A DNA stretch of 39,909 bases from Clostridia bacterium (GCA_017959985.1 JAGCZP010000047.1:1-39909); one strand, 5' to 3'. Shown: positions 1-34,344, numbered from the stretch's first letter. The notes: a model not told the origin generated them from the letters alone. Numbers and translations are program-made.

Positions 1-3000
1 CCACATCGTTCGTTTGTGTTGCAAACACATCCGATGTAAAGCTCGCTGTGTATCGGGTAGTGCCACCTGCGGTACAGGTTGCTAGCACTTGAACGCTAGA
101 AGACATCGTTGCTGCCTCAATCAAAGGAGTACCACAAACAGAACAGGTAGCAAGAGCGGTACAGGCCGAACCATCTGCCGACCAATTATATTGAATAGAC
201 GAATAGCTATGTCCTGTTGGCAAAATATCTTCTATGTCTTTTGTTTGTCCTTCAAACAACTCATTGGTAAACACAACCGTATAGGTGGTGGTTCCTGCTT
301 CTGTACAGGTTGCCACATCTTTAACGGTATCGGTCGAATTGACCGTTTCACTAACTTCATCCCCGCAACGGCTACAAACTGCGTGTGCGGTACAAGTCGA
401 ACCATCAGCAGCCCAAGTATAGGTAATGGTGTAATTGTGTCCTAAAGCTGCAATATTGGCTTCATCATGGGATTGTTCTCCGAACAATGGATTTGTAAAG
501 GTCGCCGAATAGGTATGAACACCATTTTCCGTACAAGTCGGTTGACTCTTAAGGGTTTCGCTTGTGTAAACCTCTTCGGTAATCTTGTGAGTGGCATCAT
601 GGCTACAAGTGGCCGTTGCCTTCACTTTTCCCTGTTCTGTTTTCCACTCATAGGAAATGACATAATCATGACCTAAGGCTGGAATGTCTTGAATTGCTTT
701 GGTTTGTTGTATAAATAGCACTCCGGTAAAGGTGGCCGTATAAGTGGTGGTTCCTGCGTCTTCGCAAGTCGCTGCCGTTGTCTCTTCACTAGAAATGGTG
801 GCATATTCGTCCACAACATCTCCGCAAACAGAACAGGTAGCCACTGCATGGCACGAAGAACCATCTGCTGCCCATGTATACAAAACATTGTAATTATGGT
901 CTGCCATCGGAATAGTATCTGTAACGGTTTGTTCTACGAATAAACCATTGGCAAAGGCGGCGGTATAGGTAATGGTACCGGTTGCAGTACAGGTTGCCGG
1001 GTCTGTCACCTCACTGGTAGCGTCCACAGTCTCGATGACAACATGGCTGCCGTCATTTTGGCAAACCGCCTGTGCGGTACATTGCGAATAATTGACACTC
1101 CAAGTATAGGTAATGACATAATCATGCTCTAATGCTGGAATATCTTGTATATCTTTAGTTTGTGTAGCAAACAACGCATTGTCAAAGGTCGCAGTATAGG
1201 TAGTGGTTCCCATCGTGATACAAGTTGGCGCTATTTTCTGGACACTAGAAATGATTCCGTGTTCTTGCGACACATGGCTACCATTATTCTGACAGATAGC
1301 GGTTGCCATGCAATAAGATCCGTCTGCTGCCCATTCATAAGACACAACATAATCATGTCCGGTAGCAGGAATATCCGTCTTATCAATAGTTTGTACAGAG
1401 AAGACGGCGTTCGTAAAGGTTGCTGTGTACGTGGTAATACCATCCGACGTACAAGTTGCTGCTGTTTTCACCACCGAAGTACAAACAACATTTTCGGTAA
1501 TCACATCGCCGCAACGCGAACATTCTGCACGTGCCGTGCAAGTGGTTCCATCATCCGAGAACGTATAGGTAATGATTGAATAATCATGTCCCAGTCCACC
1601 GGAACCAGCAACCGATTCGCTTTGCTCGGTAAATAACGGATCAGTAAAGGTGGCGGTATAAACGGTGGAACCAGCACCCAAGCAAGTAGACTCTTCGCCA
1701 ACTTGGCTAGTTACAACACCATTTTCAGAATAACTATCTCCGCATCTCGAACAAGTGGCGGTAGCTGTACAAGTAGAGTGATCAACACTCCACTCATAAG
1801 AAGCCACATAGTTATGTCCTAAAGGAGCAACATCGTTACGTGTAGTGGTTTGGGTTTCAAAATTCGGATTGGTAAAGGTGGCAGTATAGGTAGTCGTTCC
1901 ATTATCCGTGCAAGTTGCAGGAGTGGTCACTTCGCTGGTACAAGCCACTTCTTCCTCAATCTCATCGTTACAATCTGCACAAATACCATGCGCCGTACAA
2001 GTTGAACCATCCACAGAGAATGTATAGGTCGCCGTATAATTGTGACCGGTAGCTGGGATATCTTGAACCGTTGTCGATTGCGCCTCCATCATATCTTTTG
2101 AGAAGGTAACCGAATAGGTTGTATATCCCATTGCCGTACAAGTAGCTGGTGTGGAAACGGTTGCCGTGGAATTCACGGTTTGATTTTCCACGTGGCTAGC
2201 ATCCGTTTGGCAAACAGCATGCGCTGTGCATTGGGAATAATCGGATGTCCATGTATAGGTCACTACCCAATCATGGCCGGTAGCCGGAATATCATCAACA
2301 TTCTTATATTGGGTTGTAAACCGTGCATCACTAAACTGTGCTGTATAGCGAGTCGTTCCTGCCGTGGTGCAAGTTGCTGCGCTAATCTCTGCAGAAGTAA
2401 TTGTCGCATATTCGGTAATTTGGTCGTGACAACGACTACACTCTAAAATGCCTTCACAAGAACTGCCGTCTAATGCCCACACATATGGTTGGACTTCATA
2501 ATTATGACCAAGAGCCGGCATGGTGGAAGGATCATCATAGGTTTGCGTCTCAAAAATAGGATTGCTAAAGACTACAGTGTAACGAATCACACCAGGGTCT
2601 GTACAAGTCGCAGTAGAGATGTTGTTAGAAGTAAAATACTCTTCTTCCACAATCACGTGAGAAGCATCGTTCTCACAAGTTGCAGTTGCTTTCACTTTTC
2701 CTTGTGCAATCTTCCATTCGTATTCCACGGTGTAATTATGACCGGTAGCTGAAATATCCTCAATATCTTTTGTTTGGGTCACATACGGAGCACCTGTAAA
2801 GGTTGCCGTGTATCTTGTGGTACCCGCTGTTGTACAAGTGGCGGCCACTAACACTTCGCTAGAGATGGTCGCGTCTTGATTGATTTGGTCATTACAGTTT
2901 TGACAGGTTGCCACGGCCGAACAAGACGATCCATCCGCCGCCCACGTATATTCAACCGTATAATCATGACCCGTTGCCGCAACATTTTGAACCTCTTTTG

Positions 3001-6000
3001 TCTGGGTTTCAAAATTCTCATTTTCAAAGGTTGCGGTATAGGTGGTCGTACCCATTACCGTACAGGTCGGATCAGTGGTCACTTCACTGGTAGCATCAAC
3101 CGTTTCGGTAATGTAATGGGTGTTATCGTATTGACAAATTCCCAATGCCGTACAAGAAGTGGTTCCATTCCAAGTATAGGTAATGGAATAGTTGTGTGGC
3201 ATTGCAGGAATGTCTTCAATATCTTTTGTTTGGGTTGCAAAAGGTTCTCCGCTAAAGGTAGCAGTGTAACGAGTGGTCCCTGGTCCCGCACAAGTGGCGG
3301 CCACTAACACTTCACTGGTAATGGTTGCATTGGCATTCACTTGATCTTGACAGGTTTGACAAGTTGCTACAGCCGAACAAGAGGAACCATCCGCTGCCCA
3401 TGTATACTCAACCGTATAATCATGCCCTAATGCGGAAATATTCTGCACTTCTTTTACTTGCGTTTCAAAATTGGCATTTTCAAAGGTTGCGGTATAAGTG
3501 GTTGTGCCTTGCGTTGTGCAATCCGGATCGGTGGTCACTTCACTGGTGGTATCCACCGTCTCCGAAATAACGGAATCACAACGACTGCAGTTTCCAGTTG
3601 CTGTGCAGGTGGCGTTATTCCCACTCCACACATATTCCACAACGTAATTGTGCCCTAGTGGGGCCACATTGTTAAGTGTTGTTGATTGTGTTTCAAAGAG
3701 TGCGTTTTCGAAATCGGCCGTGTAGGTGGTTGTTCCATTACCCGTGCATGTGGCTGGTGTGGTCACTTCACTGGTCGAATCCACTGTTTCGGTTACAACA
3801 TGACTTTGATCGTTTTGGCAAATGGCAGTGGCCGTACAAGACCCTTTTCCTTCTGCCCATTCGTAAGAAATTACATAATCATGACCTAAAGCAGCAATAT
3901 CTTCCACATCTTTTGTTTGCTGAGCAAATAGTTCACTGGTAAAGGTTGCTGTGTAGCGGGTCGTTCCTACGCTTTCACAAGTGGCTGCAACGATTTCTTC
4001 ACTGCTAATCGTAGCATCATCCTCAACAACATCATTGCAAATAGAGCAGGTCGCCACTCCGTGACAAGTTGATCCATCCGTAGCCCAAGTATACGCTGCA
4101 CTATAGTTATGACCAGTGGCTGGAATATCCGCCACATCTTTGGTTTGGGTCGTGAAAGGCTCCTCAGTAAAGGTTGCCGTATAGCGAGTGGTTCCCGCTT
4201 CTGTACAAGAAGCGTTTGCATATAAAGCGGAGGTAATCGAACCATTATCTGTTATTTCATCGTTGCAACGACTGCAAATGGCCGATGCGGCACAAGAAGA
4301 ACCATCCGCTGCCCAATCATACGTAATGGTATAATCGTGTCCTAACGGTTCATTGCTTTCCACATCTTTGGTTTGGGTGGTAAAAGCTGGATTTGTAAAC
4401 GTTGCGGTATAACGAGTAGTCCCTGCTTCCGTGCAAGACGCACCAGAAAGGGATGCGCTCGTCGTATTCACTACTTCTTCAATCGTATCTTGGCAAATCG
4501 AACATTCTCCATTTGCGGTACAAGTGGAGTTATCCGCTGACCAAGTATAGCTCACCACATAATCGTGGCCTGTCGCAACAATATCTTCTACATTTTTTGT
4601 TTGGGTGGTAAACAAAGTACTGGTAAAGGTTGCCGTGTACTGGGTGGTTCCATTGGAAGCACAACCAGCACCAGAAACAACTGCGCTGGTAATGGTCGCA
4701 CTTTCTTGTTGGATATCATGGCAACGGCTGCATTCCGCTGTACCCACACAGGAAGAACCATCGGCCGCCCAGGCATACGAAGCCACATAATCGTGATCTA
4801 AAGCAGAAATATCTTCCACATCTTTTGTTTGCATGGTGAAATTACCATTGCTAAAGATGGCGGTATACCGTGTCGTGCCAGCCTCGGTACAAGTTGGAGA
4901 CTCAAGTGTCGAAGAAACCGGATTACTCACCGTCTCGGAAATCTCATCGCCACACACACTGCAAACACCGGTTGCGGTACAAGAAGAACCATCCGCTGCC
5001 CAAGAATAGGAAACATCATAGGAATGTCCCAAAGGATCGCCTGTTAAAGATTTATGCGCATCCGAGAAGACGGAAGTATTCACAAACGTTGCGGTATACT
5101 CCACCGTTTCTCCTGTGGTGCAATTGGCAGCAGATGTCACATTGCTTGTAATCGTGCCATGTTCCACTAATTGATAATTACAAACCGAGCAAGTGGCAGT
5201 TGCTGTACAATCACTGGCATCATCTTCCCACACATACGAAACTGTCGAATAGTTATGTCCGGTTGCCGCAGGAAGTGCTACGGTTTCCGATTGTGTCGTA
5301 AAGAGTGAATTAGTAAAGGTTGCTGTGAACGTAGTGGAACCAGCTGCCGTACAAGTTGGCGCTGAATTTTGAACGCTCGTCGAAGCAACCGGCTCGGAAA
5401 TCACATCGTCACAACCAGAACAGCTAGCAGTCGCTGTGCAAATTCCATAATCTGAACTCCATGCATACGACACGGAATAATTATGAATATGAACTGTCAC
5501 CGTTGAACTGTTAATGGTCGTTGCCACTTCCGTGTCATCATTACGAATCATATTGTTATGCTTATAATATGTCGTAATACTAGTTGTACCAGCCGACGCA
5601 CCGTCTTTAATCTGGAACAATAAGGTGCATAACAAGCCCGTAACGGAGCGGTCTTGTAAGTCAACAGAACAAGCCTGAATAATGGCTGTTCCATCGTTTT
5701 TATGACGGCACAAAAGACTAAAGCTTGAGGACAATTCGCCTTCAATGTAGCCCAAATCCTCTGGATCTGTAGACGTGCCATCCCAATCCTTTCCGACGAA
5801 TTCTAATACATCGTCATCATAGAGGACGTCAAAACCGAAGCCCCAGACACCTGTGTTAGTATCAATGGTGACAGGAACTTCCACGACATCCCCAGGGGAT
5901 CCTGTGACATTTCCGAGCGAAACCGTTAAATTACCCGTCGGTTCCGCAGAAACCATCATGATCCCTGTCGTTGCTACAGAGCTCAGCATAATCGCTGCGC

Positions 6001-6037
6001 AAGCAACAACAGCAAGTGCTTTGGAAAAGCGCTTCAT
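1..6037 (-). CDS. Giant secreted repeat protein, 3'-partial (at least 2012 aa in window): signal peptide + cohesin-like module + 24 tandem ~76-aa Cys-rich repeats
   Basis: The minus-strand frame is open from ATG 6037-6035 to the left window edge. RBS AGGTGGAG lies at 6043-6050 with a 5-nt spacer. I translated it manually throughout and re-checked codon by codon at 2-121, 2441-2509 and 5030-5062. It is absent from the ORF track only because no stop lies inside the window. All listed minus ORFs in 1-6037 are in a different frame. The same motif (GH[DN]Y..Y.W..DGS.CTA...C..C.D...TS.....TC...GTT.YTATF) recurs in one frame across 5.5 kb. Confidence 0.9.
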   Translation of the reverse strand, partial: MKRFSKALAVVACAAIMLSSVATTGIMMVSAEPTGNLTVSLGNVTGSPGDVVEVPVTIDTNTGVWGFGFDVLYDDDVLEFVGKDWDGTSTDPEDLGYIEGELSSSFSLLCRHKNDGTAIIQACSVDLQDRSVTGLLCTLLFQIKDGASAGTTSITTYYKHNNMIRNDDTEVATTINSSTVTVHIHNYSVSYAWSSDYGICTATASCSGCDDVISEPVASTSVQNSAPTCTAAGSTTFTATFTNSLFTTQSETVALPAATGHNYSTVSYVWEDDASDCTATATCSVCNYQLVEHGTITSNVTSAANCTTGETVEYTATFVNTSVFSDAHKSLTGDPLGHSYDVSYSWAADGSSCTATGVCSVCGDEISETVSNPVSSTLESPTCTEAGTTRYTAIFSNGNFTMQTKDVEDISALDHDYVASYAWAADGSSCVGTAECSRCHDIQQESATITSAVVSGAGCASNGTTQYTATFTSTLFTTQTKNVEDIVATGHDYVVSYTWSADNSTCTANGECSICQDTIEEVVNTTSASLSGASCTEAGTTRYTATFTNPAFTTQTKDVESNEPLGHDYTITYDWAADGSSCAASAICSRCNDEITDNGSITSALYANASCTEAGTTRYTATFTEEPFTTQTKDVADIPATGHNYSAAYTWATDGSTCHGVATCSICNDVVEDDATISSEEIVAATCESVGTTRYTATFTSELFAQQTKDVEDIAALGHDYVISYEWAEGKGSCTATAICQNDQSHVVTETVDSTSEVTTPATCTGNGTTTYTADFENALFETQSTTLNNVAPLGHNYVVEYVWSGNNATCTATGNCSRCDSVISETVDTTSEVTTDPDCTTQGTTTYTATFENANFETQVKEVQNISALGHDYTVEYTWAADGSSCSAVATCQTCQDQVNANATITSEVLVAATCAGPGTTRYTATFSGEPFATQTKDIEDIPAMPHNYSITYTWNGTTSCTALGICQYDNTHYITETVDATSEVTTDPTCTVMGTTTYTATFENENFETQTKEVQNVAATGHDYTVEYTWAADGSSCSAVATCQNCNDQINQDATISSEVLVAATCTTAGTTRYTATFTGAPYVTQTKDIEDISATGHNYTVEYEWKIAQGKVKATATCENDASHVIVEEEYFTSNNISTATCTDPGVIRYTVVFSNPIFETQTYDDPSTMPALGHNYEVQPYVWALDGSSCEGILECSRCHDQITEYATITSAEISAATCTTAGTTRYTAQFSDARFTTQYKNVDDIPATGHDWVVTYTWTSDYSQCTAHAVCQTDASHVENQTVNSTATVSTPATCTAMGYTTYSVTFSKDMMEAQSTTVQDIPATGHNYTATYTFSVDGSTCTAHGICADCNDEIEEEVACTSEVTTPATCTDNGTTTYTATFTNPNFETQTTTRNDVAPLGHNYVASYEWSVDHSTCTATATCSRCGDSYSENGVVTSQVGEESTCLGAGSTVYTATFTDPLFTEQSESVAGSGGLGHDYSIITYTFSDDGTTCTARAECSRCGDVITENVVCTSVVKTAATCTSDGITTYTATFTNAVFSVQTIDKTDIPATGHDYVVSYEWAADGSYCMATAICQNNGSHVSQEHGIISSVQKIAPTCITMGTTTYTATFDNALFATQTKDIQDIPALEHDYVITYTWSVNYSQCTAQAVCQNDGSHVVIETVDATSEVTDPATCTATGTITYTAAFANGLFVEQTVTDTIPMADHNYNVLYTWAADGSSCHAVATCSVCGDVVDEYATISSEETTAATCEDAGTTTYTATFTGVLFIQQTKAIQDIPALGHDYVISYEWKTEQGKVKATATCSHDATHKITEEVYTSETLKSQPTCTENGVHTYSATFTNPLFGEQSHDEANIAALGHNYTITYTWAADGSTCTAHAVCSRCGDEVSETVNSTDTVKDVATCTEAGTTTYTVVFTNELFEGQTKDIEDILPTGHSYSSIQYNWSADGSACTALATCSVCGTPLIEAATMSSSVQVLATCTAGGTTRYTASFTSDVFATQTNDV
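2..5482 (-). repeat. 24 in-frame tandem coding repeats, period ~228 bp (75-77 codons), last one truncated by the window edge
   Basis: Recurring plus-strand strings (e.g. ataatcatgacc / ccaagtataggt / ggtaaaggttgc) at ~228-bp spacing. (2012-185)/76 = 24 units. I counted 24 H-[DNS]-[YW] unit starts in the translation. Confidence 0.85.
5486..5935 (-). other. Cohesin-like module (aa ~35-184 of the giant protein)
   Basis: LTVSLGNVTGSPGDVVEVPVTIDTNTGVWGFGFDVLYDDDDVLEFVG...GLLCTLLFQIKDGASAGTTSIT...STVTV matches the characteristic cohesin pattern: G.PGD.V.VPV, then F.L.YD...L, then a F.[IV]K...A..G motif near the end. Recognised by eye only. Confidence 0.6.
5945..6037 (-). other. Sec signal peptide of the giant protein (MKRFSKALAVVACAAIMLSSVATTGIMMVSA / EP)
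   Basis: Basic N-terminus (KR..K), a hydrophobic core, and a VSA motif before EPTG as seen in the translation. Confidence 0.7.
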
Positions 6038-6099
6038 GAATACTCCACCTTTACAAAAAATGTGTAAATACTTTAAAAATTTAAAATATTTAGAACTAT

Positions 6100-6133
6100 A
6101 TTATACCGTATTTCTATGCAAATTTTCTATGCA
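6100..6133 (-). promoter_or_regulatory. Putative promoter region of the giant gene: -10 TATAAT (6100-6105) plus a perfect 10-bp direct repeat TGCATAGAAA x2 (6111-6120, 6124-6133) where the -35 would be
   Basis: TATAAT lies ~60 nt upstream of the ATG. The hexamer at 17-nt spacing is AGAAAA, a poor -35. The direct repeat has 13-bp periodicity and overlaps that position. Confidence 0.3.
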
Positions 6134-6174: not shown

Positions 6175-6206
6175 ACAAAAAATGTCTACCCTTTTGAGGT
6201 AGACAT
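6175..6206 (-). terminator. Rho-independent terminator after hydA
   Basis: Minus-strand stem ATGTCTACC (6198-6206) / GGTAGACAT (6182-6190), 7-nt loop, followed by a T-run (6177-6181). It lies 22 nt after the hydA stop. Confidence 0.75.
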
Positions 6207-6227
6207 TTTTGTTCGATTTAAACTAGG

Positions 6228-7973
6228 TTAGTTAAACTTTTTGCGAGCCACATACGAGGTATGTAAATCGTGGTGAGCGGTCTTTCCGCCATAGCCTTCT
6301 GTGTAATACTCATCGTAGAGCGTTTTCACAAATTCGGACTCATGAGACTTACGGAAAGTCATGCTGGAATCCTCGCCATAAAGGGCTTTTGCTCTTTCGC
6401 TTCTCAAATCAATCCAGTTGCGAACGCTAGCCGGTTGAATGGGTTGTCCACCACCATTTACGCATCCGCCTGGGCAGCACATAACTTCCACAAAGTGCCA
6501 TGGTGCGGTACCATCTTTAATCTTGGATAAGACATAATCGGCATTCTTCACACCACTGACAACGCAAACTTTAACTTCGGTACCAGCAATATTGTAAGTT
6601 GCCTCTTTAATACCATCAATACCACGAACCTCTGGGAAGGAATCAGGATCGTTTTCTTTCCCGGTTAACCAGTCGTTAGCGGTACGAAGAGCCGCTTCCA
6701 TAACACCACCGGTAGCACCAAAGATATGGGCAGCACCAGAAGCTTTTCCAATAGGATTGTCGAATTCTTCATCCGGAAGTTCGGTAAACTTAATACCGGC
6801 ACGATCAATCATACGAGCCAATTCACGGGTGGTGAGAGAAATATCAACATCCGGGTATCCCGAAGCATTCTCATCATCACGGGTAATCTCAAATTTCTTA
6901 GCGGTACAAGGCATAACCGAAACAACAACAATGTTCTTTGGATCCAAATCGTTTTTCTTTGCATAGTAGGTTTTGATAATCGCACCTAACATCTCATGAG
7001 GAGATTTGCAAGTTGAAAGATGTGGAATTTGTTCCGGATAGTAATACTCTAAAAACTTGATCCAACCAGGAGAACAAGAGGTAATCATCGGAAGGGTTCC
7101 GCCATTTTGTAACCGTTGCACAAACTCGGTGGCTTCTTCCACGATGGTAACGTCTGCTCCCACGTCGGTATCAAAGACTTTGTCCACACCTAAGCGACGA
7201 ATGGCAGCAGCCATTTTGCCTTCCACGTTGGTACCAATAGGCATTCCAAAGCTCTCGCCTAAACCGGCACGAACAGCAGGAGCGGTCTGGAACACAACGT
7301 ATTTATCAGGATCGGCAATGGCGGCCCATACTTTTTCAGTGTCATCCACTTCGGTTAAAGCACCGGTCGGGCAAGCAGTAATACATTGACCACAAGAAAC
7401 ACAAGGAACATCCACTAAGTCTTTTTCAAAGGGACACGCAATATGGGTATCAATACCACGGTCGTTGGCACCAATAACCGAAACGAGTTGGTTATTACAA
7501 GCACCGACACAACGACGGCAAAGCACACACTTATTGTTATCACGGACTAAGTGAGCCGCACTAGCGTCTTTCTTGTATTCTGGACGGAAGCCATCAAAAC
7601 GGCCACTATCCTCTACCCCATAATCGCGGCAAAGTTTTTGCAATTCGCAATCGGTAGAGCGAACACAAGATAAACATTTTTTCTCGTGAGTCGAGAGAAT
7701 CAATTCCAAAGTCATTCGACGAGCGACTTGGACTTTTGCTGTGTTGGTTTGCACTTCCATGCCTTCGGAGACAGGATACACACAAGCGGTAACCAATCCA
7801 CGAGCACCGGTTGCTTCCACAACACAAATACGGCAGGCACCAATTTCATTGATGTCTTTTAAGAAACACAAAGTCGGAATCTCAACGCCGGCGGCATGCG
7901 CAGCTTCCAAAATGGTTGAACCAGCTGGGACGCTAACAGCAATACCGTTAATTTTCACATTAACCATATCCAT
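6228..7973 (-). CDS. hydA: [FeFe]-hydrogenase catalytic subunit HydA (M3-type: N-terminal 2Fe-2S and 4Fe-4S domains + H-cluster domain)
   Basis: 581 aa. H-cluster motifs VMPCTAKKFE and EVMCCPGGCVNGGGQP are present. The L1 motif is present as the variant TSCSPGW. N-terminal ferredoxin-like Cys clusters. RBS GAAGGAGG upstream. Confidence 0.9.
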   Translation of the reverse strand: MDMVNVKINGIAVSVPAGSTILEAAHAAGVEIPTLCFLKDINEIGACRICVVEATGARGLVTACVYPVSEGMEVQTNTAKVQVARRMTLELILSTHEKKCLSCVRSTDCELQKLCRDYGVEDSGRFDGFRPEYKKDASAAHLVRDNNKCVLCRRCVGACNNQLVSVIGANDRGIDTHIACPFEKDLVDVPCVSCGQCITACPTGALTEVDDTEKVWAAIADPDKYVVFQTAPAVRAGLGESFGMPIGTNVEGKMAAAIRRLGVDKVFDTDVGADVTIVEEATEFVQRLQNGGTLPMITSCSPGWIKFLEYYYPEQIPHLSTCKSPHEMLGAIIKTYYAKKNDLDPKNIVVVSVMPCTAKKFEITRDDENASGYPDVDISLTTRELARMIDRAGIKFTELPDEEFDNPIGKASGAAHIFGATGGVMEAALRTANDWLTGKENDPDSFPEVRGIDGIKEATYNIAGTEVKVCVVSGVKNADYVLSKIKDGTAPWHFVEVMCCPGGCVNGGGQPIQPASVRNWIDLRSERAKALYGEDSSMTFRKSHESEFVKTLYDEYYTEGYGGKTAHHDLHTSYVARKKFN

Positions 7974-10195: not shown

Positions 10196-10765
10196 TTATG
10201 AATTGCAATTACTATGTTCTATCGCACCATATTGTTCGTTTAGATATTCCCGTATCCACGTTAATACCTCTATCGTATCCAATGGCACTTCTCCAAGAAC
10301 GCTGGTCAGTTCCGCTGTATCTAGCGTTACTTCCCCGTTCTCAAATACATGTTGAAACACCCAATGAGTGGACGGATTTCCTTGAATTAAGGTCACCAAC
10401 GTGGAAACAATATCCCCCAATGGTGTGGCGTCAATATGCTTTTTGTAAAACAAAGCTTGAATGGTAGTACCATGGCACCGCGGATTCTCTTGCTCACACA
10501 CCGATTCCAACGTCATCGTTCCACCGGTTTGCTCGGCAGCGAGTTTCAAGAACGGAATGCCAAGTCCCACATCTCTTGTGGTTCGTGTTGTTGTAAAAGG
10601 ATCACAAGCCTTTTCTAAAAACTCGGAATCCATTCCACAACCGTTATCCACAATGGTTAATTGCAAGGTTTCCTCATTTTCTTTCAAGATAATGGAAATG
10701 GTGTCTGCCTTGGCTTTTAAGGAATTCTCTGCAATATCTAATATGTTAAGGGATAGTTCTTTCAT
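10196..10765 (-). CDS. HATPase_c-only ATP-binding protein (kinase-like, no HisKA or receiver domain seen)
   Basis: N-box ENSLKA, G1 DNGCGM, G2 GLGIP. Start moved to ATG 10765 (MKELSLNILD), which has RBS GGGGAG and abuts the PHP gene stop. The track ORF start at 10789 overlaps the upstream gene. Confidence 0.7.
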   Translation of the reverse strand: MKELSLNILDIAENSLKAKADTISIILKENEETLQLTIVDNGCGMDSEFLEKACDPFTTTRTTRDVGLGIPFLKLAAEQTGGTMTLESVCEQENPRCHGTTIQALFYKKHIDATPLGDIVSTLVTLIQGNPSTHWVFQHVFENGEVTLDTAELTSVLGEVPLDTIEVLTWIREYLNEQYGAIEHSNCNS

Positions 10766-11502
10766 GATGTTTCTCCCCGCAAGTAGCAAAATAGGTTATG
10801 CCGTACCAGTTGACTGCTATACGGCTCATCGTCTAGTTCGACGAAATTCTCTTTATCCCGAATATGCCACAAATAGTGCGCATCAGAAGAAATGAGTATC
10901 TTCCGTTTTTTTATGGCCGGATACTTTTCTAAATATTCCGGGATATTCTCTTTGTCCCGAAATTCGCAACACAAAAACCCATCATAATCTGGAAACGAGC
11001 CTAGCACCGCAATTGCTCCATTAGCCGGTCGATCCACATGGGCGGGAAAGCAAACGCCTCCCTGTTTAGCAACAAGAGCCGGAACTTCTTCAATGGGAAT
11101 GGTGGTGGCGTTTGAAAGCAAGCATTCGTCACTTCCTACCACATGGTCTTCCCCATCCAAGATGAGCTGTTCTCCGAAAACATCCACTTTATTGGGTATC
11201 TTCACACGTCTTGAATCCACAACACCATCAAAAGCCATGGCATCTTCCAAAGTTTCAAATAAACACACCACATGAATATCTTCGGCGGTTGTTAGTTCCA
11301 TTCCCGCAACGGGAATAATTCCGTTTTTCTTGGCTGCTTCAAAAAAAGCAGGACAATTTTTACAAGTATTATGATCCGTGAGTGCCACAATTTGCAAACC
11401 CGCCAACGTTGCCATACCGGCAATATTGTTGGGCGTCATATCCTGGTCCCCACAGGGTGATAAACAAGTATGAATATGAAAATCGTAATAATACTTACTC
11501 AT
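10762..11502 (-). CDS. PHP-domain phosphoesterase
   Basis: 246 aa beginning YDFHIHTCLSPCGD, with later DHN and SDAH histidine motifs typical of PHP metal sites. ATGA overlap with the upstream gene. Confidence 0.7.
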   Translation of the reverse strand: MSKYYYDFHIHTCLSPCGDQDMTPNNIAGMATLAGLQIVALTDHNTCKNCPAFFEAAKKNGIIPVAGMELTTAEDIHVVCLFETLEDAMAFDGVVDSRRVKIPNKVDVFGEQLILDGEDHVVGSDECLLSNATTIPIEEVPALVAKQGGVCFPAHVDRPANGAIAVLGSFPDYDGFLCCEFRDKENIPEYLEKYPAIKKRKILISSDAHYLWHIRDKENFVELDDEPYSSQLVRHNLFCYLRGETS

Positions 11503-11825
11503 AATTCACTGGCAATATCTTTTAGCGTTTCAAAGGCCGTTTTGGAAGAAGAAAGGATGTTAACCCCTTTTTCCACAGCCATATCCACAATTTCCTTGTC
11601 TAGAGTAACTCCTTCGGCAAGAATGACGCAAGAGACATCCACTAGGGAGGCCACTGCCACCACATTCAGGTTAGACATAATGGTGACCCAAACATTTCCT
11701 GCTTTTGCACGGCCCATCACCCAACTCAACAAATCGCCAACATAACAACCGGAGACAATCTTCTCCCCTTCGGGCATTGTCACCACAGAAAAAGCATATT
11801 TTGTTGCCAATTGATTGACCGTCAT
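11499..11825 (-). CDS. DRTGG-domain protein (copy 2)
   Basis: Small protein with VGDLLSWVMGRA...VWVTIMSNLNVVAVA, typical of DRTGG-type proteins in hydrogenase clusters. Start set at ATG 11825 (RBS AAGGAG), 5 nt after the upstream stop. Confidence 0.55.
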   Translation of the reverse strand: MTVNQLATKYAFSVVTMPEGEKIVSGCYVGDLLSWVMGRAKAGNVWVTIMSNLNVVAVASLVDVSCVILAEGVTLDKEIVDMAVEKGVNILSSSKTAFETLKDIASEL

Positions 11826-11830
11826 TGGAT

Positions 11831-13114
11831 TTACTCCTTGTTTGTTTTTATATTTTTCTCTGCCTGCCGGACCACACAATCTTCAATGGTCGGGCCAAGG
11901 CCTTTTACGATATCTTCGGCAAAGGCACGACAGGTTGGAGACCCACAGGCACCGCAGTCGATTCCCGGAAGTTCTTCGTGAAGCGTTTGAATGGCTTCCA
12001 TCATCTGCATAGCTTGCAAGCGATCCTGACTTAAGAAAGTCAACCCGTCATAGCTTGGTGTCGAACCAAAGAAATACTCTTGTGGAATATTGCTTTCGTC
12101 CCCGGCTAAGAAGTTTCGGGAAACCGGCATATACCGTCTCACCGTTTGCAGCCTTGTTTTGGCAATAAACGGGTTTTCAATGGTCATCATGCCTCCCACG
12201 CATCCGCCGGTGCAAGCATTGAGTTCAATAAATTCTAAGTCTGGAATGTTTCCATCCTCAATTTTTTCTAAAATATCCACGACATGTTCAATTCCATCAG
12301 CTGCTAGATACTTATCGTTGAGAATAGCCGAGGCTTCTCCTCCGCTGGAGGCCCAGCCAATTCCCACCATACCGGCTTTGGATGCCGCTTGTGGTTGAAC
12401 ATCTCGTCTCATAACTCCTAAAATCATAAAGTAAACATCGCTCATGGAAATGACAACGTCCACATGCGATTTGTAATCGCCAAAACCCATATTGATATAG
12501 CTAACTTTGGCAGGACAAGGAGAAATGAAATAAATACCAATATCATCTTCATCCAGTTCTGGATGCTCTTCCTTCGCTTTCTTCTTGGCCATAATGGCGG
12601 CAATCTCCATGGGAGGAAGCAAAGGAAGCAAGTTTTCTTCTAAAGACGGGAACCGTGTTGAGATTAAACGCATCACCGCCGGGCAAGCCGAACTTAACAC
12701 CGGCTTCTTTATCCCTTCCCGTTTCATATAGATACGGGTGTATGCGGAAACATATTCCGCGGCTTGTGCCACTTCAAAGACATCATCAAATCCGATATCT
12801 AACAAAGCTTGAATGACATAGTCTGCATCTTCCAAATCGTTAAACTGTCCAAACAATGCCGGAGCTGGAAGCGCAATTTTCCATTTAAACTCTTGGTGGT
12901 TTTCCCATTTATTACAAAGGGCTTTTCGCGCCCCGTGAGGACAAACACGAATGCATTCTCCGCAATCAATACAACGGTCCGGATTGATTTCAGATTTTCC
13001 ATCGTGCACACGAATGGCTTCGGTAGGGCAGTGTTTTAGGCAAGTCGTACAACCTGTGCATTTATCCACAAACAACTCAACGGAATGTCGATAACAAGTC
13101 TTTCTTTTTGCCAC
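11831..13114 (-). CDS. Sensory-type [FeFe]-hydrogenase homolog (HydS-like, group D-like): 2x[4Fe-4S] + degenerate H-domain + C-terminal 4-Cys motif
   Basis: 427 aa with a GTG start. Ferredoxin motifs CTGCTTCLKHCP and CIDCGECIRVCP. H-cluster motif equivalents are SSACPAV (for TSCCPxW), SPCPAK (for MPCxxK) and ELNACTGGCVGG. The C-terminus is CGACGSPTC followed by a further Cys ~17 residues later. Confidence 0.75.
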   Translation of the reverse strand: MAKRKTCYRHSVELFVDKCTGCTTCLKHCPTEAIRVHDGKSEINPDRCIDCGECIRVCPHGARKALCNKWENHQEFKWKIALPAPALFGQFNDLEDADYVIQALLDIGFDDVFEVAQAAEYVSAYTRIYMKREGIKKPVLSSACPAVMRLISTRFPSLEENLLPLLPPMEIAAIMAKKKAKEEHPELDEDDIGIYFISPCPAKVSYINMGFGDYKSHVDVVISMSDVYFMILGVMRRDVQPQAASKAGMVGIGWASSGGEASAILNDKYLAADGIEHVVDILEKIEDGNIPDLEFIELNACTGGCVGGMMTIENPFIAKTRLQTVRRYMPVSRNFLAGDESNIPQEYFFGSTPSYDGLTFLSQDRLQAMQMMEAIQTLHEELPGIDCGACGSPTCRAFAEDIVKGLGPTIEDCVVRQAEKNIKTNKE

Positions 13115-22890: not shown

Positions 22891-24138
22891 TTATTTTAAA
22901 ATGTCCCGAAGGTTATACCACATACGCATATAATGGATGGCAAAGCCATACTCCCCAACAGGAGGTTTCTCCTGAAGCATTCCGAGAGCTTTTAGCAATT
23001 CCGTGTACATGATTTCTTTAGAGTCCGCATAGAAATCTACATGGTCTCCTTCTCCATCATTACCGGTCTCTACTCCATACACAATTTTAATACCGGTCAA
23101 ATCCACAGCACGACGTCCATATTCCGCAACGCTAAGTATTTCTTTTGCCGTATCCCGGTAAGCCATCATGCACATCACATCACAGCAATTGGCAATGGCA
23201 TCAAAAAATCGAACCGTATAGGTGCCATCTCCGTTATCCGTTGGACGACCTTTTTGTTCATATAAAGGGGTAAAGCCTAAGTCATAGATAACCTTTTGTG
23301 ATAGGAAATCCCATCCACAGCCGATATCCAGTTCTACCCACACACCATGATCTCTCGCTTGTTTAACTTGTCCTAAGAAATTGGTCGCGTAGCCTTGGAA
23401 CCATTGTTGCCAGCTTTCCGAAGAAGCACGGTCAGCAGCCTGTGGTTCAATATCGCAGTGGAGTCCATACAAAGCATCCGCCGGGTAGATTTCTTTGTAT
23501 TGAAGGTATAAATTATACGCATTGATAAACGATTTGCTTCCGGCTCTGACGACTCCCTGTTCATCAAATAGCACGCATACTCGCATGTTGCGTTGCATAG
23601 CTGCTTGTACGAAATTGTGAATGGTTGTCCGTCCGCTATCGGAATCTAACAACTGTGCACAATAATAATAGATTTCCGTTACTTGGTTTTCCTCTAAGAA
23701 ATCCATATACTTATCGCGCGTTCTCTCGCTCTCTTGGTGCCACCACCACACGCCCAAAGAAGCCTTGCTATCAGAGATAAAGTTAATGCGTGGGTTTTCA
23801 TGATTAATTGTTGGCTGTGTTGTTCCCGAAAGGTCCGATTCAAACGTTCCGAGAGAGGGAATCATATGGGCCATAAACTTACGAATGAGCAAAACGTCTT
23901 GCAAGTTTAGGTCCCCGTCTTTATTTACATCCGCTGCCTGTTCATGAAAGGTATGAACCCAATCCGGATTTAACAAATAATTGCGAAATCCTAACACATC
24001 GCGCATATCGATACTCTCATCGTAATTGATGTCTCCATACTGATACGTTTGAGCCTTGGCAATATTTGCAAGGCCAATGGATCCAATCCACACAATAAGC
24101 ATACTGATTGCAAGTAAAAAAGATAATTGCTTTTTCAT
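22891..24138 (-). CDS. Secreted protein with an N-terminal type-I-like dockerin and a ~310-aa C-terminal domain of unknown function (possibly TIM-barrel glycoside-hydrolase-like)
   Basis: Signal peptide MKKQLSFLLAISMLIVWIGSIGLANIAKA. Two EF-hand-like dockerin segments, DINYDESIDMRDVLGFRNYLL and DVNKDGDLNLQDVLLIRKFMA (nt 23869-24036). Confidence 0.75.
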   Translation of the reverse strand: MKKQLSFLLAISMLIVWIGSIGLANIAKAQTYQYGDINYDESIDMRDVLGFRNYLLNPDWVHTFHEQAADVNKDGDLNLQDVLLIRKFMAHMIPSLGTFESDLSGTTQPTINHENPRINFISDSKASLGVWWWHQESERTRDKYMDFLEENQVTEIYYYCAQLLDSDSGRTTIHNFVQAAMQRNMRVCVLFDEQGVVRAGSKSFINAYNLYLQYKEIYPADALYGLHCDIEPQAADRASSESWQQWFQGYATNFLGQVKQARDHGVWVELDIGCGWDFLSQKVIYDLGFTPLYEQKGRPTDNGDGTYTVRFFDAIANCCDVMCMMAYRDTAKEILSVAEYGRRAVDLTGIKIVYGVETGNDGEGDHVDFYADSKEIMYTELLKALGMLQEKPPVGEYGFAIHYMRMWYNLRDILK

Positions 24139-24151
24139 ACAATCCCTCCTT

Positions 24152-25411
24152 TTAGAAAGAGTAGCAATTCATTGCGGTAAGGCCTAAAACAACGGCATCA
24201 CCGGCAAAAGTACCACAAACCTTCAGTCCACCTATCTCGGTCGCAATCGCTTTTGTCTTGCCGGAGGAATTGCACATAATCACATTGCTATCCGTCAACA
24301 GGAAGAAACGACCATACGAACCAGATGAGAAACTTTGATAGGTTTCATCAAAATCGATACTGAAGTCTTCTTTTCCGCTCTTACTAATTCCCAAAAGTTC
24401 ACAACCGGTTGTCGTACCATAGTTTTGTAACACGAGACCGATTTGACTTCCAGAAAACGCACATCCAATTAATTTCTTATCTGTATAGGAAATCTTGGTG
24501 AAATCATTTTTCCCGACACGAACCACCCAGCTTTCGGTATCGCCCACGGCGCCTACCACACTATTGGATAAGAATTCTACTTGACACAAAAGAACACCGG
24601 TTCCTCCGTATTTGGTAGGTTCATTATTGGAAGAGGTATTAAATACCAGCAATTTCGATTCGGTTGCTCCTTGGTTAGACTGCACCCCAACGACCGCCAT
24701 TTGTCGGCCGTCATTGCGTATAGCTACGTCCATGACTAAAATGTCTGAACTGTACCAATGGAGCTTTTCTTTTCCGGATTTGCTATAGCAAATTACTTCG
24801 GAAGCATAACTCTTGCTAGACCCGGTAGCGACCACAAAAGATCCATTTCCCGCAATATCCGCCGCCATAATGTTTGACTCGGTATTCACTTCTTTCATGG
24901 CACTGCCAAGTGTTTGGGTTTGAATCCGTGTTCCACCCATTTCCGCCAGCAAAATATGATTGCCCGCCGTGGATAGAATCGGAGAAGCAAAGTTATGGTT
25001 TTCAGTTTGAACCACACCCGCCGATTTGTTGTAGACTGTCAAGGTATTTCCGGTTAAAAGGGCCAATTGGTTACTCACAGAATCCATTTTTACAACACTA
25101 CTGCCCTCTGCTTTAGCGGGAAATCCGTCCCCGCTCTCTCCGCCGGTGACCACAATTTTCCCCCAGTTGAAAACACTGACAGGATTGAGAACATCCCAGC
25201 GAAGATACACAATAAGGCCAAGTAAAAGAATAATGGCTAAAATGATTAGGCGTTTTTTCGATTTCGGTTTTTTGGAACGTTCCATTCGACGCTCCGCCAC
25301 CGAACGAGCAACTTCGGCTACCTCATCATTTTCATACTCTCTATTTGCGGAAGAATCCGTTTTTGTTTTTACGTGCGCTTTACGAATACGGACATCGTTT
25401 CGTCTCGCCAT
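24152..25411 (-). CDS. Membrane-anchored protein of unknown function (basic N-terminal tail, one TM helix, beta-rich ectodomain; possibly DUF5711-like)
   Basis: 419 aa, RBS AAGGAGG, TM helix LIILAIILLLGLIVYL. The repetitive G/S/V-rich strand-like C-terminal region suggests a propeller-type fold. The family assignment is from memory only. Confidence 0.5.
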   Translation of the reverse strand: MARRNDVRIRKAHVKTKTDSSANREYENDEVAEVARSVAERRMERSKKPKSKKRLIILAIILLLGLIVYLRWDVLNPVSVFNWGKIVVTGGESGDGFPAKAEGSSVVKMDSVSNQLALLTGNTLTVYNKSAGVVQTENHNFASPILSTAGNHILLAEMGGTRIQTQTLGSAMKEVNTESNIMAADIAGNGSFVVATGSSKSYASEVICYSKSGKEKLHWYSSDILVMDVAIRNDGRQMAVVGVQSNQGATESKLLVFNTSSNNEPTKYGGTGVLLCQVEFLSNSVVGAVGDTESWVVRVGKNDFTKISYTDKKLIGCAFSGSQIGLVLQNYGTTTGCELLGISKSGKEDFSIDFDETYQSFSSGSYGRFFLLTDSNVIMCNSSGKTKAIATEIGGLKVCGTFAGDAVVLGLTAMNCYSF

Positions 25412-33141: not shown

Positions 33142-34344
33142 TTAGCCATTGATAGCGGTAACAACACCGGAACCAACAGTACGTCCGCCTTCACGGATAG
33201 CGAAACGAAGACCTTCTTCGATAGCGATTGGGGTGATCAATTCAACGTCCATTTCGACGTTGTCACCAGGCATGCACATCTCGGTGCCAGCTGGCAAGGA
33301 GATAACACCGGTAACGTCGGTGGTACGGAAATAGAATTGAGGACGATAGTTGTTGAAGAATGGGGTGTGACGTCCGCCTTCATCCTTAGAAAGGACATAA
33401 ACTTGACCATGGAATTTGGTGTGTGGATTGATGGAACCTGGTTTGCAGAGAACTTGTCCACGTTCGACTTCTTCACGGCCTACACCACGGAGAAGAGCAC
33501 CAACGTTGTCGCCAGCCTCGCAATAATCGAGGGTCTTGCGGAACATTTCCATAGAAGTAACAACTGTTTTGGCTTTTTCGTCTTTCAAACCAACAATTTC
33601 AACTTCTTCGCCAGCTTTAAGAGAACCACGTTCGACACGGCCGGTAACAACAGTACCACGACCGGAAATGGTCATAACGTCTTCGATTGGCATTAAGAAA
33701 GGAAGATCAGCTTTACGCTCTGGGGTTGGGATGTATTCATCAACAGCGTTCATGAGCTCAATGATTGGAGCATAAACAGGATCGTTGATGTCGGTGGAAC
33801 TGCTTTCCAAAACTTGTAAAGCAGAACCTTTGATGATAGGAGTATCATCGCCTGGGAATTCATAGCTGTTCAAAGTCTCACGAACTTCCATTTCGACGAG
33901 TTAGAGAAGCTCTGGATCGTCCATTTGATCGCATTTGTTTAAGAAAACAACGATGTATGGAACGTTAACCTGACGAGCGAGAAGTAAGTGCTCTTTGGTT
34001 TGGGCCATAGGACCATCGGTAGCAGCGATAACGAGGATAGCACCGTCCATTTGGGCAGCCCCGGTAATCATATTTTTGATATAGTCGGCGTGGCCTGGGC
34101 AGTCAACGTGAGCATAGTGACGTTTTTCAGTCTCATACTCAACGTGAGCGGTATTAATTGTAATACCACGCTCTCTCTCTTCAGGAGCCTTATCGATGTT
34201 TGCATAATCGGTGAATTCAGCACCGCCTTGCATTGCTAACACTTTGGTGATAGCAGCGGTAAGAGTGGTTTTACCATGGTCAACGTGGCCAATGGTACCA
34301 ATGTTTACGTGTGGTTTGTTTCTTTCAAATTTTGCTTTTGCCAT
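33142..34344 (-). pseudogene. tuf: Elongation factor Tu gene, full length (400 codons) but interrupted as sequenced by a single in-frame TAA at 33901-33903. Track fragments are 33901..34344 and 33142..33891.
   Basis: N-terminal fragment has [18 protein letters not shown] and NKCD. It ends ...DDPELL*, and the same frame continues [28 protein letters not shown]... The stop replaces the Glu of the conserved EELLELVEMEVR segment, so GAA to TAA is one substitution. Confidence 0.85.

Follow-up and report, generated by a model that had tools for sequence, protein, structure and literature searches.

A giant cohesin-bearing protein of a Clostridia bacterium, a predicted surface stalk built from an apparently new Cys/His-rich module

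We describe a stretch of DNA from a Clostridia bacterium (GCA_017959985.1 JAGCZP010000047.1:1-39909), a whole contig of 39,909 bp referred to here as the window, and the partial gene at its beginning, which encodes a giant protein with the features of a secreted scaffoldin. The coding sequence occupies 2..6037 on the minus strand and comprises 2012 codons; it is complete at its 5' end and is cut at its 3' end, where the assembly stops inside a long array of repeats. An original prediction, made by a model from the sequence alone, had proposed a 6-kb open reading frame (ORF) running from the ATG at 6037 to the edge of the window, and computational translation finds no in-frame stop across all 2012 codons. 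Over the same bases, 1-6037, each of the remaining five frames is interrupted by 38-146 stops, and the probability that a frame of this length would stay open by chance at 46% GC is about 1e-48, confirming that the frame is a real gene. The same prediction correctly pointed out that the gene is missing from the ORF track, but the reason is trivial: the track excludes ORFs that run past a source end, and this gene is absent because it runs off the contig. Also as anticipated, the C-terminus of the protein lies beyond the window.

The expected start signals are present as well. A strong ribosome-binding site, AAAGGTGGAG (6043..6052, minus strand), was read from the sequence 5 nt 5' of the ATG, and a consensus scan identified a sigma-70-like promoter candidate (TAGAAA-18 nt-TATAAT, 6100..6129, minus strand) that contains the proposed -10 element and matches the consensus, which is its sole basis, at 10 of 12 positions. 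Further upstream, a terminator-like hairpin with a stem of 13-14 bp and a T run (6178..6210, minus strand) ends the preceding hydrogenase operon, directly 3' of a 581-aa [FeFe]-hydrogenase gene (6228-7973) that is part of a HydABC-type cluster. Attempts to extend the contig returned nothing: the exact 42-mer of window positions 1-42 is absent from GTDB representative genomes and JGI metagenome contigs, and the exact HydA protein has no match on record.

At the N-terminus, residues 1-30 look like a Sec signal peptide, judged by eye (MKRFSK, a hydrophobic core and VSA/EP; 5948..6037, minus strand). They precede a type-I-like cohesin module at aa 38-182 (5492..5926, minus strand), which had been predicted as cohesin-like and is identified here by both profile and predicted fold. 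The Pfam family Cohesin (PF00963) matches at E 9.7e-10 with 39.2 bits, against a gathering cut-off of 24.1, and spans positions 2-139 of the 139 in the profile. AlphaFold2 modelled aa 31-335 with a mean predicted local distance difference test (pLDDT) score of 90.1; the model has the jelly-roll β-sandwich of cohesins, and a Foldseek search of the PDB with it returned 97 matches at E<=0.001, of which the top 50 listed are all cohesins or modules resembling them. The best of them are type I cohesins with target template modelling (TM) scores of 0.79-0.80 and E values of about 1e-10, including CohA2 of Clostridium acetobutylicum (6kgf_A, E 1.3e-10, target TM 0.79), and further type I matches comprise CipA of Clostridium thermocellum (1aoh_A, TM 0.78), OlpA and OlpC. 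Matches listed at TM >=0.55 span only about 150-190 columns, which is the size of a cohesin, and this search gave no known fold for the repeats.

The remainder of the protein, aa 180-2012 (2..5500, minus strand), is an array of exactly 24 tandem Cys/His-rich units of 75-78 aa each, in agreement with the number, length and consensus originally proposed. The units start at aa 180, 256, 333, 410, 486, 562, 638, 714, 791, 867, 943, 1019, 1095, 1173, 1250, 1327, 1403, 1479, 1556, 1633, 1709, 1785, 1862 and 1938; the last one, of 75 aa, stops at the contig edge. Mean identity among the 24 units is 45% at the protein level and 52% at the DNA level (maximum 76%), synonymous sites are near saturation (proportion of synonymous differences, pS, 0.72 vs 0.40 for the nonsynonymous counterpart, pN), and Tandem Repeats Finder reported no array in the window. 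Judged by this divergence, the 24 units are old duplicates. Therefore, a recent collapse or misassembly of the repeats, the artefact against which the array had to be checked, is unlikely, and recombination-driven variation in length is not expected.

The original prediction had not recognized the repeat as a named domain family, and our searches bear this out. Scans of the whole protein against the curated libraries Pfam-A 2025 and NCBIfam 20.0 at E<=1 returned the cohesin and no repeat family, with no match of the unit to isopeptide, ester-bond, G5, SHIRT, Big or Flg_new domains. When 75 diverse units were scanned singly against Pfam at E<=10, the result was scattered noise, with no family matched by more than three units. 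A profile search of all PDB sequences with the unit turned up nothing beyond a stretch of 22 residues in rotavirus VP4 that matched by chance, and full-text literature searching found no paper describing such a repeat. By these searches, the 76-aa unit has not been catalogued and seems to be a structural module of a new kind.

The unit is not rare. A search with the full-length protein retrieved 114 proteins of 1,100-3,400 aa from uncultured Clostridia, with a best identity of 43%; their annotation is either hypothetical or taken from a leucine-rich repeat (LRR), S8 peptidase, Ig-like or S-layer homology (SLH) domain that lies alongside the units. No orthologue was found, and the best full-length match, the one at 43% identity, has another head domain. 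A hidden Markov model of the 24 window units detects 1-18 units in each of the 114 relatives, at a modal spacing of 76-81 aa. We defined the family by a match to the unit profile together with conservation of H6, C2, C4, G54 and the aromatic positions, features that the window units share, the profile itself being founded on these 24 units. When 1.84 billion representative proteins were searched exhaustively with the profile, 7,796 clusters matched at E<=0.001, 5,190 of them at E<=1e-10, so that the family runs to several thousand protein clusters. No protein among the 150 best listed has more than 25 matched stretches, which places the 24 units of the incomplete window protein near the top of these 150. 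The repeat as such is nothing unusual; what sets this case apart is that it lacks annotation and that the array is so large.

Among named genomes, the unit is nearly confined to metagenome-assembled genomes (MAGs) from rumen and gut (Lachnospiraceae, Oscillospiraceae, Ruminococcus, Acutalibacteraceae, Christensenellales), and a single cultured isolate, Lachnospiraceae bacterium V9D3004, carries it. The unit also occurs in MAGs labelled Atopobiaceae, Salinivirgaceae, Bacteroidetes and Bacteroidales (loci L011, L019, L021, L028, L045, L062), which reflects either horizontal transfer or contamination of these bins by clostridial sequence. In 114 or more proteins the units stand between varied heads and anchors, the heads including LRR_5, S8 peptidase, Big_2, Flg_new, pectate-lyase-like and cohesin domains. 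Because they are found between such unrelated heads and C-terminal modules, the units behave like spacers or stalks. A different organization is seen in tandem paralogous genes whose products of about 740 aa carry one 76-aa unit each (L039 3948-15823; also L024, L030, L074, L058 and L061); the one product scanned, that of L039 11137-13359, combines a single unit with two DUF4214 domains and a pectate-lyase-like adhesive domain.

Structure prediction of three consecutive repeats, a check put forward with the original prediction, gave a confident model without a PDB fold match. Units 5-7 (aa 486-723), modelled with AlphaFold2 from a 51-row alignment, reached a mean pLDDT of 96.8 and a predicted TM score (pTM) of 0.70. 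The model is all-β, with five strands per unit at residues 8-14, 20-27, 33-46 (a long strand), 54-60 and 70-77. Foldseek found no PDB entry at E<=0.001, the best match having an E value of 0.015 and a TM score of about 0.1. The only significant neighbour of the rod model in the viral structure library is BFVD A0A8S5QLF9 from Podoviridae sp. ctdRZ1 (E 2.5e-8, 20% identity), a fragment from a virome contig annotated as 'S-layer homology domain'; it probably belongs to the family, either as a bacterial protein or as one that a prophage carries, and is uninformative on function. The array of units probably forms a stiff, rod-like stalk.

The pattern of cysteines and histidines suggests how neighbouring units may be held together. 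In a pool of 447 units, H6 is conserved in 99%, C2 in 100%, C4 in 90% and G54 in 94%. C1, which is column 21 of each unit (for instance aa 506 in unit 5), is Cys in 69% of the pool and otherwise Val or Ala; its presence is independent of the type of C3, and it has no co-varying Cys partner. C3 is found in 30%; of the 24 window units, 17 have a CxxC motif. In units that lack C3, the segment after C2 nearly always supplies a ligand-type residue, most commonly as C-x5-His and otherwise as C-x3-4-Cys or similar. His is thus interchangeable with Cys at this position, and because His cannot pair in a disulfide, this exchange points to metal ligation. We then examined co-variation in about 1,900 units taken from 252 proteins, from ORFs of related loci and from the window protein itself. 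C4 and the opening His of the next unit co-occur (two-by-two counts of 1527 and 189 over 61 and 145; odds ratio 19), and units with no Cys in the upstream 45 residues carry an extra His or Cys up to 5 residues before H6 in 38 of 83 cases, vs 52 of 1865 for the others (odds ratio 29); the kinship of the units inflates the p-values of both comparisons, a weakness of this line of argument, and the effect sizes alone are reliable. At array-initial units, the compensating residues typically take the form H-x-H. The window protein has such a motif, H-I-H at aa 183-185 (VHIHNY; 5483..5491, minus strand), at the boundary between cohesin and array, where it is proposed to substitute for the absent C4, and the cohesin-array junctions of relatives bear the like motifs VHIHGW, VHIHEW, VHIHNW, HVHAY, HTHEF and HEHNY.

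The order of strands in the model, together with the return of the β1-β2 hairpin, places the predicted site across the junction between units. The β1-β2 hairpin would bring the C2/C3 knuckle back beside H6 at the start of the unit, and the long β3 would span the unit and carry C4 to its far end; β4 and β5 would return the chain to that end, where the next H6 emerges after β5. Conservation and co-variation accordingly point to a four-ligand Cys/His site at each unit junction, made up of C4 of unit n-1 and of H6, C2 and C3 (or the His that replaces it) of unit n. Each junction would then hold one tetrahedral Cys3His or Cys2His2 site, most likely occupied by Zn2+, and the metal could lock neighbouring units together and stiffen the stalk.

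The original prediction also likened the unit to shorter 'TCTExG...CxxCG...GH' repeats, a likeness that stands in part. In relatives including P0087, P0033 and P0001, the 76-aa unit is accompanied by a second one, about 40 aa long, that follows the pattern H-x10-PTC-T-E-x-G-x5-C-x2-C-x13-GH, with H, C, G, C, C and H as invariants, so that the two repeats do co-occur in the same proteins; the window protein has no short units. In a profile-profile comparison, a 17-column 'PTCTExG..YT' knuckle-hairpin is all that aligns (long-unit columns 45-61, 87% probability, E 3.8e-6), and the rest of the unit remains unaligned. The short repeat has weak partial matches to zf_UBZ, Zn_ribbon and treble-clef/zinc-knuckle models, and among long 76-aa units scanned singly no zinc-finger profile matches. 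The weak matches of the short repeat fit a metal knuckle, and such similarity falls short of placing it in those families.

The layout of signal peptide, cohesin and units is shared by at least nine further proteins retrieved by a local iterative search, and their C-termini suggest how the window protein may end. Four of them have SLH triplets at the C-terminus (P0231, P0247, P0162, P0033), and four end in a hydrophobic helix and basic tail after an xxTG-like motif, resembling a sorting signal (P0159, P0210, P0248, P0209). P0087, which has an N-terminal cohesin and both long and short repeats, ends in a dockerin, and its gene lies directly downstream of one for a 2,879-aa S8 peptidase bearing a dockerin. 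Likewise, three dockerin genes flank that of P0003, and the product of one of them combines a peptidase of family C1, a lectin and a dockerin. On the window contig there is one dockerin-bearing protein, a secreted protein of 415 aa (22891..24138, minus strand) with an N-terminal type I dockerin at aa 34-88 (Pfam Dockerin_1, E 1.3e-10) and about 310 C-terminal residues that have no Pfam match. Its gene adjoins that of a DUF5711 protein (24152-25411, minus strand) among housekeeping genes. As both genes are on one contig, this protein is a candidate for the class of ligand that the cohesin binds.

With respect to the host, elongation factor G (EF-G) identity is 92% to Clostridia MAGs, 88% to Acutalibacteraceae and 87% to Anaeromassilibacillus, so by this marker the organism appears to fall near Acutalibacteraceae/Anaeromassilibacillus. 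Non-cellulolytic cohesin-dockerin complexes, termed 'mucinolysomes', have been described in this lineage (PMC12997984); cysteine-rich repeats are unmentioned in that paper, where the word 'cysteine' does not occur.

Taken together, we favour, as moderately probable, the reading that the gene encodes a scaffoldin-like surface protein with a type-I-like cohesin at the N-terminus, raised on a long rigid stalk of at least 24 β-rich units with metal junctions. The Sec signal peptide would direct export, the cohesin would bind one or more dockerin-bearing proteins, and the rod would hold it far from the point of attachment. If each unit rises by about the length of one β3 strand (4-5 nm), the part of the array seen here would measure on the order of 100 nm, an estimate taken from strand lengths. 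The unseen C-terminus would carry either a dockerin or a wall anchor in the form of an SLH triplet or sortase-type signal, and by analogy with the relatives the stalk is most likely wall-anchored or docked at this end. Several observations weigh against parts of this scheme. The C-terminus is off the contig, and the mode of anchoring is therefore argued by analogy only. The dockerin gene is about 17 kb away from the cohesin gene and not adjacent to it, and the cohesin is divergent, the isolated module having no close relative in a word-indexed search. As for the junctions, their geometry is derived from strand order and co-variation, with metal binding as a further step of inference; about 10% of units have no C4, 45 of the 83 array-start units have no obvious substitute ligand, and C1, despite being Cys in 69% of units, is left unexplained by the proposed site. 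It is possible that C1 may simply be a buried position.

Different placements of the protein and different roles for its repeats also need to be considered. The example of P0087, where an N-terminal cohesin and long and short repeats are followed by a dockerin, raises the possibility that the window protein, whose own C-terminus is off the contig, has no wall attachment of its own: it might end in a dockerin and insert into a second scaffoldin, or it might be released, and its stalk would then be a spacer within a multi-protein complex. SLH triplets or sorting-signal-like tails in eight of the nine same-layout relatives examined make this free or adaptor scaffoldin rather unlikely. We also considered that the repeats might themselves bind glycans or plant or host surfaces through a conserved aromatic face, in which case the protein would be a fibrillar adhesin and its cohesin secondary. 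Y12, W14, Y58, F62 and F67 are indeed strongly conserved, the repeats are very numerous across the family, and some family members have no recognizable head domain. However, conserved aromatics are expected for packing in thin β-sheet rods, the pairing of the units with many unrelated heads and anchors is usual for spacer modules, and Pfam scans of the whole protein and of single units gave no match to a carbohydrate-binding family, all of which leave an adhesive role of the repeats improbable.

A further alternative concerns chemistry rather than placement, namely that the Cys and His residues are not metal ligands and that the units are stabilized by disulfides or by another covalent cross-link of the isopeptide or ester type. 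Extracellular Cys-rich repeats often carry disulfides, and the CxxC motif of 17 of the 24 window units could be read in this way. Nevertheless, across the family the second Cys of this motif is usually His, which forms no disulfide; C1 has no Cys partner with which it co-varies; C4 of one unit co-varies with the invariant His of the next; the Pfam scan revealed no domain of the isopeptide or ester-bond type; and the hosts are strict anaerobes, judging from the [FeFe]-hydrogenase cluster. Given this evidence, we regard covalent stabilization as quite improbable. Finally, the contig ends inside the array and is not error-free, as it contains an in-frame stop in tuf, and one could imagine a non-coding, chimeric or collapsed repeat assembly that is open by chance. 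Such an artefact is barely credible in view of the chance estimate of about 1e-48 for the open frame, the intact start signals, the mean DNA identity of 52% among units with pN below pS, the thousands of homologous proteins and the confident fold predictions.

The scaffoldin-like reading can be compared with several known systems. In C. thermocellum, SdbA, OlpB and Orf2p, as well as OlpA and OlpC, combine a cohesin with a linker and SLH domains, and ScaE of Ruminococcus flavefaciens combines a cohesin with a sortase signal. Like these anchoring scaffoldins, the window protein is predicted to be secreted and to hold its cohesin away from a C-terminal wall anchor of the kind seen in its relatives, and its predicted cohesin fold matches the cohesins of OlpA and OlpC (3ul4, 4dh2) and, more weakly, that of ScaE (2zf9). 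In contrast to the short Pro/Thr-rich linker or X-module of those proteins, its spacer consists of folded, Cys/His-rich repeats that take up at least 1,830 residues, and the dockerin neighbours of its relatives are proteases, not cellulases. The scaffoldins of mucinolysomes and amylosomes (Limousia/Anaeromassilibacillus and Ruminococcus bromii) belong to non-cellulolytic cohesin-dockerin systems of the gut Oscillospirales lineage, which is also that of the contig (PMC12997984), but they are described as tandem cohesins, whereas the window protein has a single cohesin and a very long array.

With regard to stalks, the Gram-positive stalk families compared here are not known to have intramolecular Cys/His sites of the kind proposed for the window units; in Aap, zinc bridges two molecules. 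The G5-E repeats of SasG and Aap, the SHIRT domains of 'Periscope' proteins and the stalk domains of fibrillar adhesins resemble the window array as small, β-rich tandem domains that project an N-terminal binding module (PMC8201768, PMC9704523, PMC8286594), although the sequence and predicted fold of the window unit are unrelated to them, having no Pfam or PDB match. A length-variable protein of the Periscope type was itself tried as a candidate and ruled out, because the DNA repeats of the window are too diverged (mean 52% identity, maximum 76%, nothing reported by Tandem Repeats Finder). The BIg repeats of RTX adhesins offer another parallel, in that metal ions bound at the junctions, in this case Ca2+, stiffen and extend tandem β repeats (PMC7493085). 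Those repeats are Gram-negative β-sandwiches that hold Ca2+ on acidic residues, unlike the Cys/His candidate ligands of an anaerobic Gram-positive bacterium, which imply chemistry of the Zn type. The unit also shares with zinc ribbons and knuckles the CxxC(G) and C-T-x-x-G turns at hairpin tips and His as a candidate fourth ligand; it differs from them in that the proposed ligands come from two consecutive units, not one compact domain, and are extracellular.

Our analysis suggests that a known functional class, that of surface stalk proteins bearing a cohesin, is built here from a module that is uncatalogued and seems to be new. For the cohesin-dockerin field, this would add a scaffoldin architecture in which a single cohesin stands on a long rigid rod, in a lineage with newly described non-cellulolytic complexes. 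More broadly, and here we lean slightly towards doubt, the 76-aa unit and the short repeat of about 40 aa might together constitute a new class of extracellular module, in which consecutive β-meanders stapled by a shared Cys/His metal site give strictly anaerobic Gram-positive gut bacteria, which use few disulfides, rigid stalks of the order of 100 nm for cohesins, proteases, LRR adhesins and other heads. If this is true, Zn-based stiffening would possibly join Ca2+ linkers and isopeptide and ester bonds, and a rod as regular as predicted would be usable as a modular nanoscale spacer. There is also a practical side to defining the unit as a family. Rumen and gut Clostridia have thousands of very large surface proteins whose annotation is 'hypothetical' or takes its name only from an adjoining LRR, SLH or peptidase domain, and the 76-aa unit makes up much of their length; a family definition, with a confident model and a testable hypothesis of junction metals, would improve annotation across a large part of the gut 'surfaceome'.

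The rest of the contig is a core chromosomal region, all on the minus strand, with rpoC, rpsG, fusA, tuf, ruvCAB, energy-coupling factor (ECF) transporter genes, truA, pgsA, a clpB-like gene and the hydrogenase cluster; Rfam detects no RNA family anywhere in the window. The tuf gene (33142-34344, minus strand) contains an in-frame TAA at 33901-33903 where a conserved Glu is expected, a single-base change from GAA to TAA that splits it into same-frame ORFs of 147 and 249 aa. This stop could be a sequencing or assembly error, the mark of a pseudogenized second copy, or a real nonsense mutation. The hydrogenase cluster, in turn, contains an insert of three genes (10196-13114, minus strand), which encode a 427-aa HydA-like protein with an extra C-terminal Fe-S motif (PF04060), a histidine-kinase-type ATPase and a PHP-domain protein, and which look like a sensory or regulatory hydrogenase module.

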